Shown here piece after piece: positions 7,957-19,191 of a DNA stretch of 29,572 bases. The notes beneath the pieces were generated by a model, which was not told the DNA's origin, did no database searches, and saw nothing but the letters and a program-made list of their open reading frames with translations. Numbering within the stretch: the first letter of the stretch is position 1; every line of letters begins with the position of its first letter. The stretch is from Promethearchaeota archaeon (lineage in GTDB: Archaea > Asgardarchaeota > Lokiarchaeia > Sigyniarchaeales > SOKP01), in the NCBI GenBank assembly GCA_013375475.1, contig JABXKD010000046.1:1-29572 (forward strand), in the 5' to 3' direction. Position numbers and translations under genes: made by a program.

Positions 7957-7987
7957 TTACATTTTACCTTTTTTAAAAAAATAAAAT

Positions 7988-8055
7988 ACCCCAACCTTAG
8001 CAAGGTTGTCCCCATGTATCAACGATTTTTATACATGAGTCATCCATTAAGGGGT
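7988..8055 (-). promoter_or_regulatory. SECIS element (eukaryote-like, 3' UTR) for the selenoprotein at 8055-8564
   Basis: The minus strand after the stop reads ACCCC-UUAAUGG-AUGA-CUCAUGUAU-AAAAAUCGUUG-AUACAUGGG-GA-CAACCUUGCUAAGGUU-GGGGU. This gives an AUGA/GA core (8043-8040 and 8010-8009), a 9-bp upper stem with one G-U, an A-run opening the apical loop, and a lower ACCCC/GGGGU stem. Confidence 0.85.
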
Positions 8056-8564
8056 TATAACTTTTCGTCAATTATGGTAGTCATCATTTTTATCGAAGGC
8101 CTATCCGTCTTATCTTTTCCAATGTAAGTCCATACGATTTTTCTATCCTTGTTTATCAGAAACTTGCTAGGAACTGCTTGTTTAATGTTTAACGATCCTC
8201 CTCCGCCGGGAGCAAACCAATAAACATCGTAATCTTTAGCTATTTTTGCTCCGCGATCAGAGATGATATCGACATTAAAATTGTTTTCTTCCTTAAATTT
8301 TCTTAGTAGTCTTTCACTATCACTTGTGATTGATATTAACTTAATGTTCCTGCTCTCAAATTCTTCGATGTTTTCTGTTAGTAGATGCAAATGCTTTTTA
8401 CAGTGACTTCACCAATTTCCCCGAAAGAAATCAATTAGAACTCCGTCGTACTCTTCAAGTAAGTTTTCCAAGTTCATTTCTTTTCCATAAACATCTGTAG
8501 TGTCAAAGATAGGTGCTATCGAACTCACTGGTAAACCGTCAGGCCTAGGCGGTTCTTCGTTCAT
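8055..8564 (-). CDS. Peroxiredoxin-like (AhpC/TSA, thioredoxin fold) selenoprotein, Sec at codon 52 (UxxC)
   Basis: ATG at 8564 reads MNEEPPRPDGLPVSSIAPIFDTTDVYGKEMNLENLLEEYDGVLIDFFRGNW[TGA 8411-8409]SHCKKHLHLLTENIEEF... and continues in frame into the listed 8055-8390 ORF, 169 aa in total. The TGA replaces the first Cys of the family FxRGxWCxxC motif. Confidence 0.92.
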
Positions 8565-18723: not shown

Positions 18724-19191
18724 TTATATTTTCTCTAATATTTCAAATATTTTTTCATTTTTAGGAATATCTTGCATGCTATCTCCATAATAAGCGAATT
18801 GAATAATACCTTGCTTATCAACGATTAACATTCCAGGCATCCTTCCTCCTTTGGATAACTTTATCTCTTGATTCAGCATTTTTGGCACTTTTTTTGAGGG
18901 ATCATAGAAAATTGGATATTTTCGAGCATATTTTTCTTCTAGCTTCTTCGCATTTTTTTCAGAATCTGCTAAGATCGGATATATATAGGTTTCCAATTCT
19001 TCGAATTTTTCATAATCTTTTCTTAAATGTGCTGCGTGCCATCTACAGTAAGGTCAATTGATATTTCGAAACAATACGACGACAACTTTCTTCTTGCCTT
19101 CGAGAGCTCTTATATTTATTGTTTCTCCTCTCGAATTTGGTAATGAAAACTCTTGGATTTTCTCACCAACGATTTGAAATTTATCTTTCAT
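18724..19191 (-). CDS. Peroxiredoxin-like (AhpC/TSA) selenoprotein, Sec at codon 46 (UxxC)
   Basis: ATG at 19191 reads MKDKFQIVGEKIQEFSLPNSRGETINIRALEGKKKVVVVLFRNIN[TGA 19056-19054]PYCRWHAAHLRKDYEKFEEL... in frame with the listed 18724-18996 ORF, 155 aa in total. The TGA sits at the first Cys of a CPYC-type motif. Confidence 0.92.

Follow-up and report, generated by a model that had tools for sequence, protein, structure and literature searches.

Selenocysteine insertion sequence (SECIS) elements of Lokiarchaeota, named lokiSECIS, were described by Mariotti et al. in 2016 for PrxL, VhuU and HdrA-VhuD genes (PMC4989117; this and the further publications are cited from the accessible parts of their texts). 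In that definition an AUGA precedes a 9-bp stem, the stem carries an 11-nt loop with adenines in its first five positions and an ultraconserved final G, GA follows the stem (AA in VhuU), and the whole is located near the stop codon. PrxL was one of the five selenoprotein families of PMC4989117. Huang et al. (2024, PMC11227280), who covered more than 400 Asgard genomes, found 1224 of 1439 Asgard selenoprotein genes to have type I 'eSECIS-like' structures and counted Prx-like among five widespread families; a 2026 review (PMC13188914) repeats the eSECIS-like model. Here, we consider such a structure at positions 8055-7988 (minus strand) of a stretch of 29,572 nucleotides, contig JABXKD010000046.1 of assembly GCA_013375475.1 (Promethearchaeota archaeon), which as a whole is called the window. 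It is located in the 3' untranslated region (UTR) of a Prx-like (AhpC/TSA) gene (8564-8055) with an in-frame UGA and is very probably the selenocysteine (Sec) insertion element of that gene, of the lokiSECIS class, in an Asgard (Promethearchaeota) metagenome-assembled genome (MAG).

The element shares with lokiSECIS the AUGA, the 9-bp stem, the 11-nt loop with A-rich start and final G, and the GA. Like lokiSECIS, it is placed just after the stop codon of a UGA-bearing Prx-like gene, displays compensatory changes and belongs to a Lokiarchaeia-type Asgard host. No difference was found in the defining features; the penultimate loop base was U, whereas it is most often A in lokiSECIS. An initial annotation, made from the sequence alone, had announced that the class was not new, in agreement with its description in 2016 (PMC4989117) and its cataloguing in 2024 (PMC11227280). 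The published model, as given in the accessible text of PMC11227280, consists of core, upper stem and apical loop only, while the present element adds a mini-hairpin.

The label 'eukaryote-type', used in the initial annotation, was only partly appropriate. Elements of the eukaryotic type I (RF00031) and the present one have in common a location in the 3' UTR, action at a distance (presumed here) and, at the sequence level, AUGA...GA, which is assumed to fold as a kink-turn, and unpaired apical adenosines. In contrast, the upper stem of lokiSECIS is shorter (PMC4989117) and the element has an extra hairpin on its 3' strand. The proposed check with Rfam SECIS models gave no match: at gathering thresholds no Rfam family, SECIS models included, was detected in the whole window, and at E<=10 the segment 7900-8150 gave no SECIS family and only noise-level matches to snoR38, Afu_254, rli43 and sR5. 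Membership in eukaryotic SECIS as modelled by Rfam was rejected on account of this lack of a match even at E<=10. Existing SECIS tools fail on Loki genes according to PMC4989117, and the accessible texts of PMC4989117 and PMC11227280 report no SBP2 homologue in Asgard archaea.

Euryarchaeal (methanogen) SECIS are likewise located in the 3' UTR of archaeal selenoprotein mRNA, and those of vhuD and hdrA also carry AUGA_[G/A]A (PMC4989117, PMC11227280). The main stem of the element, unlike that of methanogen SECIS, has no GAA_A internal loop and no G-C clamps; the initial annotation had stated that methanogen SECIS have another motif. Bacterial SECIS have in common with the element the recoding of UGA to Sec (presumed here), but they form a hairpin directly 3' of the UGA inside the coding sequence. 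None was predicted here, in line with the initial claim: when a hairpin some 16-37 nt 3' of the UGA was taken as the criterion, no stable one was found, and the 70 nt from the UGA had a minimum free energy (MFE) of -6.4 kcal/mol, with z = +1.22 versus shuffles.

Structure of the gene and of its 3' element

The Prx-like gene extends on the minus strand from ATG (8564-8562) to TAA (8057-8055), with an alternative upstream start at TTG 8573. Its product matched Pfam families AhpC-TSA (E 8e-23) and Redoxin (E 6.4e-17). A single TGA (8411-8409) interrupts the frame; read as Sec, it gives U55 in the motif GNW-U-SHC of a product of 172 residues, both counted from the TTG. Within W-U-S-H-C, U occupies the first Cys position of W-C-x-x-C, and W-C-x-x-C is displayed at the Sec site by more distant homologues. 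The AhpC-TSA match and this position of U bear out the selenoprotein gene proposed initially. Translation table 11 splits the gene into open reading frames (ORFs) of 54 and 111 aa, which a clean annotation would present as one selenoprotein gene. Two metatranscriptome contigs from two runs, X6 (8166-8423) and X20 (8296-8523), span the UGA, presence in an RNA library being no proof of transcription as such libraries can contain DNA. The RNA contigs covered the coding region only, with nothing on 7975-8165; they show neither ends nor strand and do not imply a transcript end.

Read on the minus strand, the element starts with the 5' strand of a lower helix, ACCCC (8055-8051), which shares its first A with the end of the stop codon. 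Seven unpaired bases, UUAAUGG (8050-8044), make up the 5' side of an internal loop and lead to the AUGA (8043-8040), 5' half of a putative G.A/A.G quartet. The main stem is composed of a 5' arm, CUCAUGUAU (8039-8031), and a 3' arm, AUACAUGGG (8019-8011), which form nine uninterrupted, A/U-rich pairs, eight Watson-Crick and one U.G. The apical loop AAAAAUCGUUG (8030-8020, 11 nt) starts with AAAAA and ends in G. Downstream of the stem are found GA (8010-8009), the 3' half of the core, with an invariant C at 8008, as recognised in an alignment of 41 sequences. A mini-hairpin, AACCUU-GCU-AAGGUU (8007-7993), separates GA-C from the 3' strand of the lower helix, GGGGU (7992-7988), which pairs with ACCCC. 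The core and the apical loop were read from the sequence, the internal loop from sequence and RNAfold, and the helices from RNAfold.

Order of motifs and limits (7988-8055) were those given initially, base for base, the limits being the ends of the lower helix. The spacing of 11 nt between the stop codon and AUGA (8054-8044) was exact as well, and the distance from the UGA to the AUGA, announced as about 365 nt, was 366 nt. When RNAfold was run without constraint, as had been suggested, it returned the predicted fold with all three helices (MFE -20 kcal/mol). A strict motif was defined as AUGA, 9 nt, an 11-nt loop with at least four A in the first five positions and a final G, 9 paired nt, and GA or AA. 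It occurred three times in the genome of 3.92 Mb, compared with 0-2 times (mean 0.4) in each of 20 simulated first-order-Markov genomes, and all three occurrences were located at the end of an ORF carrying an in-frame TGA.

Oligo-T acts in archaeal transcription termination. A U-tract, UUUUAUUUUUUU (7986-7975), directly follows the element; read from the sequence, it is a likely termination signal, and the transcript would therefore include the SECIS. T-rich runs were found downstream of the element in most orthologous loci.

Conservation among orthologues

A scan based on one genome per species uncovered 40 loci that encode this protein; identity was 60-91% along its full length, the stretch beyond the UGA included. 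Thirty-nine displayed TGA at the Sec site (36 UxxC and three UxxU), L050 being cut there by the contig end, and the element was kept in all 40. A simple scan for AUGA, 9 bp, 11-nt loop, 9 bp and GA recovered it in 38 of 40 loci, including L046 with AGGA instead of AUGA. The loop was 11 nt long in 39 loci and 12 nt long in L039. In L018, which has three stem mismatches, the element was located by eye.

In a plain MAFFT alignment of the 41 sequences (A1), the A, G and A of AUGA were invariant and the U nearly so, L046 being the sole exception. Loop positions 3-5 (AAA), the final loop G, the closing U-A pair, GA-C and a G two bases 5' of AUGA were also invariant. The main stem was 89.4% paired, compared with 26-60% when the 3' partner was slid by one to three columns. 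Compensatory two-sided changes were found in eight of nine main-stem pairs, none of 500 shuffles matched the observed covariation score, and RNAalifold independently predicted the same main stem. The covariation check proposed initially was thus positive, and among these orthologues the core was kept where the UGA was kept. The element stands far beyond chance because it is conserved and covarying across orthologues. In 21 of 41 sequences the pair adjacent to the core was not a standard one, as would suit a core region with non-Watson-Crick pairing. Strain variants in DNA run X1 at 8037, 8012, 8015 and 8016 all preserved pairing by our own mapping onto the stem (C-G to U.G, U.G to U-A, U-A to U.G and G-C to G.U, respectively).

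Twenty-nine of the 40 loci were labelled Promethearchaeota or Promethearchaeia, six other Asgard candidate phyla, four uncultured archaeon and one Nanopelagicaceae bacterium. Their origin from Asgard MAGs agrees with the Asgard host put forward initially. The kingdom Promethearchaeati is presumably the Asgard group. NCBI taxonomy places Promethearchaeota in Archaea, kingdom Promethearchaeati.

Some further features of these loci were observed. Locus L012 (DATKTW010000172.1), whose record names 'Candidatus Nanopelagicaceae bacterium' as the source, contains an archaeal PrxL gene of 91% identity together with a lokiSECIS and is probably a mis-binned Asgard contig. A loop variant in X1 reads AUAAA, which was also encountered in some orthologues. 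A second match to the covariance model R1, introduced below, was located about 730 nt downstream in L028, L029 and L043. Paired R1 matches about 700 nt apart on one strand were also displayed by L075, L076, L078 and L094. In these relatives a tandem arrangement of Prx-like selenoprotein genes, with one SECIS per gene, is suggested.

Association with UGA-bearing genes

Covariance model R1 (88 positions, 20 pairs) was constructed from A1 and hence from PrxL elements only. In the window it gave 82.3 bits for this element, the next best score being 14.5 bits. The Prx-like protein was searched in 301 genomes of the phylum, 64 of which matched at E<=1e-8. Every match with at least 30% identity and the N-terminal part displayed one or two TGA, and the 24 weakest matches (24-37% identity, other families) displayed none.

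R1 was then applied, with filters off, to 40 further loci, 20 TGA-bearing and 20 of the 24 TGA-free. Of the 19 TGA-bearing loci that could be evaluated (L085 was cut by the contig end), 18 had a match of 53-89 bits immediately downstream of the gene, and the 20 TGA-free loci had none at E<=1. This is a co-occurrence rather than an independent-contrast test because the two sets also differ in lineage. Only for the RNA model was the TGA-free set used as a negative control; the pick of the longest ORF sometimes missed the matched gene, and three W/R-C-x-x-C motifs were displayed.

Further elements and Sec machinery in the genome

The search of the own genome with R1, which scored 150 of 4188 first-look candidates and is not exhaustive, identified at least five further elements, on contigs C224 (54 bits), C221 (54), C50 (46), C282 (39) and C66 (30). 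Those of C221 and C282 are each located behind an FlpD/VhuD-like gene in which TGA interrupts the frame twice. The VhuD-like gene of C221 is preceded by a gene for an HdrA-like protein with a ferredoxin domain, which is the published HdrA-VhuD arrangement. The C50 element lies at the contig start. That of C66 (L068, G000:C66:32126-32217, minus; 29.6 bits, E 1.6e-3) is composed of AUGA, a 9-bp stem, an 18-nt loop, GA, a GCGA mini-hairpin and a lower helix; it follows a 298-aa ORF with neither a Pfam match nor a convincing in-frame UGA. As a side observation, the VhuD-like frame of L065 (C221, about 1520-1530) enters the SECIS, so that the first stop encountered past both Sec codons is the UGA contained in the AUGA core.

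The C224 element follows and overlaps a small ORF with one TGA (L064/L145, G000:C224:4466-4733, minus), a candidate small membrane selenoprotein. The ORF comprises 64 aa with one predicted membrane helix followed by GGGG-U-PSTC. It had no Pfam match and is outside the seven Asgard selenoprotein families named in the accessible text of PMC11227280. Sixteen other genomes of the genus were compared, and 10 of them contain the ORF with a TGA; an R1 match was present at the ORF end in all 11 loci.

TGA terminates 207 of the 1641 open frames of at least 300 codons in this genome and also ends neighbouring genes in the window. A changed genetic code, with TGA as a sense codon throughout, was rejected on this account; since TGA is otherwise an ordinary stop, recoding is site-specific. 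Several ORFs of the window that appear as read-through when TGA is translated as U were merely adjacent genes.

Four of five Sec-machinery genes were found in the genome (SepSecS, PSTK-like, selB-like and selD). SepSecS matched with 381 bits, and an elongation factor had selB as its best family (227 bits, compared with 145 for EF-Tu). Two adjacent selD genes carry one in-frame TGA each (L055/L056, G000:C155:1918-4218, minus), and R1 gave no match at either locus. The lack of a match is consistent with the literature, in which the SPS SECIS is described as different; Loki and Thor genomes are also described in print as frequently carrying several selD genes.

The fifth component, tRNA-Sec, was searched in several ways. 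The Rfam model RF01852 gave nothing at E<=0.001 on the genome and 18 weak matches at E<=10, 16 of which were inspected and were ordinary, often intron-bearing tRNAs. ARAGORN listed 24 tRNA lines and no SeC, and two structure-pattern scans of our own gave no match and one irrelevant match, respectively. The tRNA-Sec of Loki carries a 31-nt intron in the T-loop (PMC4989117), which may explain why it was missed. Many tRNA genes of this genome were about 100 nt long and apparently intron-bearing (for example G000:C11:51805-51905, C49:1045-1148 and C216:27906-28008). The genome was rated 100% complete, yet ARAGORN listed only those 24 tRNA lines.

Interpretation and alternative explanations

The element is an ordinary, well-conserved further member of the known lokiSECIS class and not a new kind. 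By analogy with the systems of eukaryotes and methanogens, we infer that it directs Sec insertion. The mRNA would run through the element to the U-tract, and the bases of AUGA and GA would fold into a core resembling a kink-turn. Recognition may also involve the apical adenosines and the conserved mini-hairpin. A binding factor, EFSec with Sec-tRNA(Sec), or both would be recruited from the 3' UTR, and Sec would be delivered to the ribosome at the UGA, which is 366 nt upstream.

A number of observations weigh against this assignment. The fold energy was only modestly better than that of shuffles: with flanks, z was -1.18 and 24 of 200 shuffles folded equally well, and the exact element gave z = -2.0 and six of 200. 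L086, which is UGA-bearing at 30% identity, displayed neither an R1 match nor an obvious AUGA stem by eye. The TGA-free negative set was distant (24-31% identity) and belonged to other families, lineage being confounded with Sec use. As to the machinery, the selB match remained below the NCBIfam equivalog cut-off (227 versus 242 bits), as did the PSTK-like kinase (162 versus 290 bits), and tRNA-Sec was not found in the 288-contig assembly with the Rfam model, ARAGORN or the two pattern scans. The sole heterologous test found in print, in the accessible text of PMC11881835, reported a lokiarchaeal SECIS as non-functional in Methanococcus maripaludis, and the literature consulted yielded no experiment on any lokiSECIS in a native system.

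Three other explanations were considered. The AUGA/GA core is a kink-turn (k-turn)-like signature, and the structure might be an L7Ae kink-turn site for translational regulation, cited for archaea in PMC11881835, or a C/D-box-like small RNA, rather than a SECIS. Weak C/D-box matches were indeed located nearby (snoR38, 15.2 bits, E 9.3; sR5, 10.5 bits, E 4.2), but they were far below the gathering scores of 45 and 40 bits, respectively, and rested on AUGAUGA within the coding sequence. A SECIS would be expected to accompany in-frame UGA in genes of unrelated families, as this kind of element does (Prx-like, VhuD and the small ORF). An RNA may both bind L7Ae and act as a SECIS, and a regulatory site in place of a SECIS appears very unlikely. 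A hairpin serving only transcription termination or mRNA stability, without any role in decoding of the UGA, would suit the U-tract directly after the element, and a consensus bacterial-terminator scan flagged the mini-hairpin with its T-tail (8008-7992; two sites versus 0.5 expected). Such a hairpin would have no need for the AUGA, GA-C, loop AAA and final loop G conserved in 41 sequences (apart from the U of AUGA in L046), nor for the fixed geometry of 9 bp and 11 nt. It would leave unexplained why the element was present in 18 of the 19 UGA-bearing loci and in none of the 20 UGA-free ones, and three of the five other R1 matches in the genome end UGA-bearing ORFs (one more lies at a contig start and one has no convincing UGA). 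This explanation was judged extremely unlikely.

The least credible explanation, to which hardly any weight was given, considers the UGA as a true stop in a truncated or split gene and the structure downstream as irrelevant to it. The split into ORFs of 54 and 111 aa under table 11 would speak for it. Against it, the frame is open across the UGA at 60-91% identity in 40 loci of many genomes, the UGA is exactly at the position of the redox Cys, and the two metatranscriptome contigs span it, although their presence in the libraries does not prove transcription.

With the lokiSECIS assignment, the contig is placed in a Sec-using Asgard archaeon. The single instance adds little because PrxL lokiSECIS were described in 2016 and were counted by hundreds in 2024. 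Three by-products may matter more for the origin of eukaryotic Sec decoding, namely the junction hairpin, a core-less structure behind a second Prx-like gene (both presented below) and the small candidate selenoprotein. All three draw attention to features of the Asgard signal that lie outside the published models of core, stem and loop, and could guide binding experiments on the missing SECIS-binding factor.

A mini-hairpin at the junction

The mini-hairpin after GA-C turns the element into a three-way junction and was absent from the description in the initial annotation. It is not mentioned in the accessible texts of PMC4989117 or PMC11227280, whose figures and supplements may show it, and a literature search for SECIS as three-way junction gave nothing on Asgard SECIS as judged by titles and starts of abstracts. 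In a model-fitted alignment of 44 elements (A2), which leans towards the model, the mini-hairpin was paired to 88.6% and kept one C-G pair in every element, and the lower helix was 74% paired with two-sided changes at all six pairs. The mini-hairpin typically consists of 5-6 bp with a loop N-G-C-R-A. When the 41 sequences were folded singly without constraint, 24 displayed all three helices, 31 the main stem, 30 the mini-hairpin and 39 lower-helix pairs. The five other R1 matches of the own genome aligned over the whole model, including the hairpin, with a GCAA, GCGA or UGCA loop.

K-junctions are k-turns in which the strand without the bulge carries a third helix (PMC4005666, PMC10573300; accessible text). 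Like these, the element has G.A/A.G-type bases between two helices, and its predicted extra hairpin is located on the 3' strand, that of GA. Unlike these, its 5' strand has nine unpaired nt before GA instead of a 3-nt bulge, and the analogy is topological only. Lokiarchaeial SECIS could, tentatively and with the odds rather against it, be regarded as three-way k-junctions in which the junction hairpin, and not only AUGA/GA, would be recognised by the SECIS-binding factor or EFSec; at least two Asgard SECIS architectures would then share one scaffold. This suggestion was based on the presence of the hairpin in 44 of 44 PrxL elements and in the five own-genome matches, and on a counterpart in the structure of the second Prx-like gene.

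A second Prx-like gene in the window

A second AhpC/TSA gene with an in-frame TGA is located at 18724-19191 (minus strand), with motif NIN-U-PYC, and one TGA was present in this gene in 46 of 71 genomes of the family. R1 found nothing behind it. Its 3' UTR displayed another three-way structure, at about 18716-18643 (minus strand), devoid of an AUGA/GA core, and a motif search of the own genome found this structure in one copy only. Its lower helix is GUUUGG/CCAAAC, its 10-bp stem is capped by an A-rich loop of 16 nt, and its small hairpin has the near-invariant loop UAGCCAC. Alignment A4 included 29 of 30 loci, L119 being dropped as it contains N. In these 29 loci the structure was 93.5% paired, with two-sided changes in 13 of 19 pairs. 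It is possibly a variant form of SECIS that the published models do not cover.

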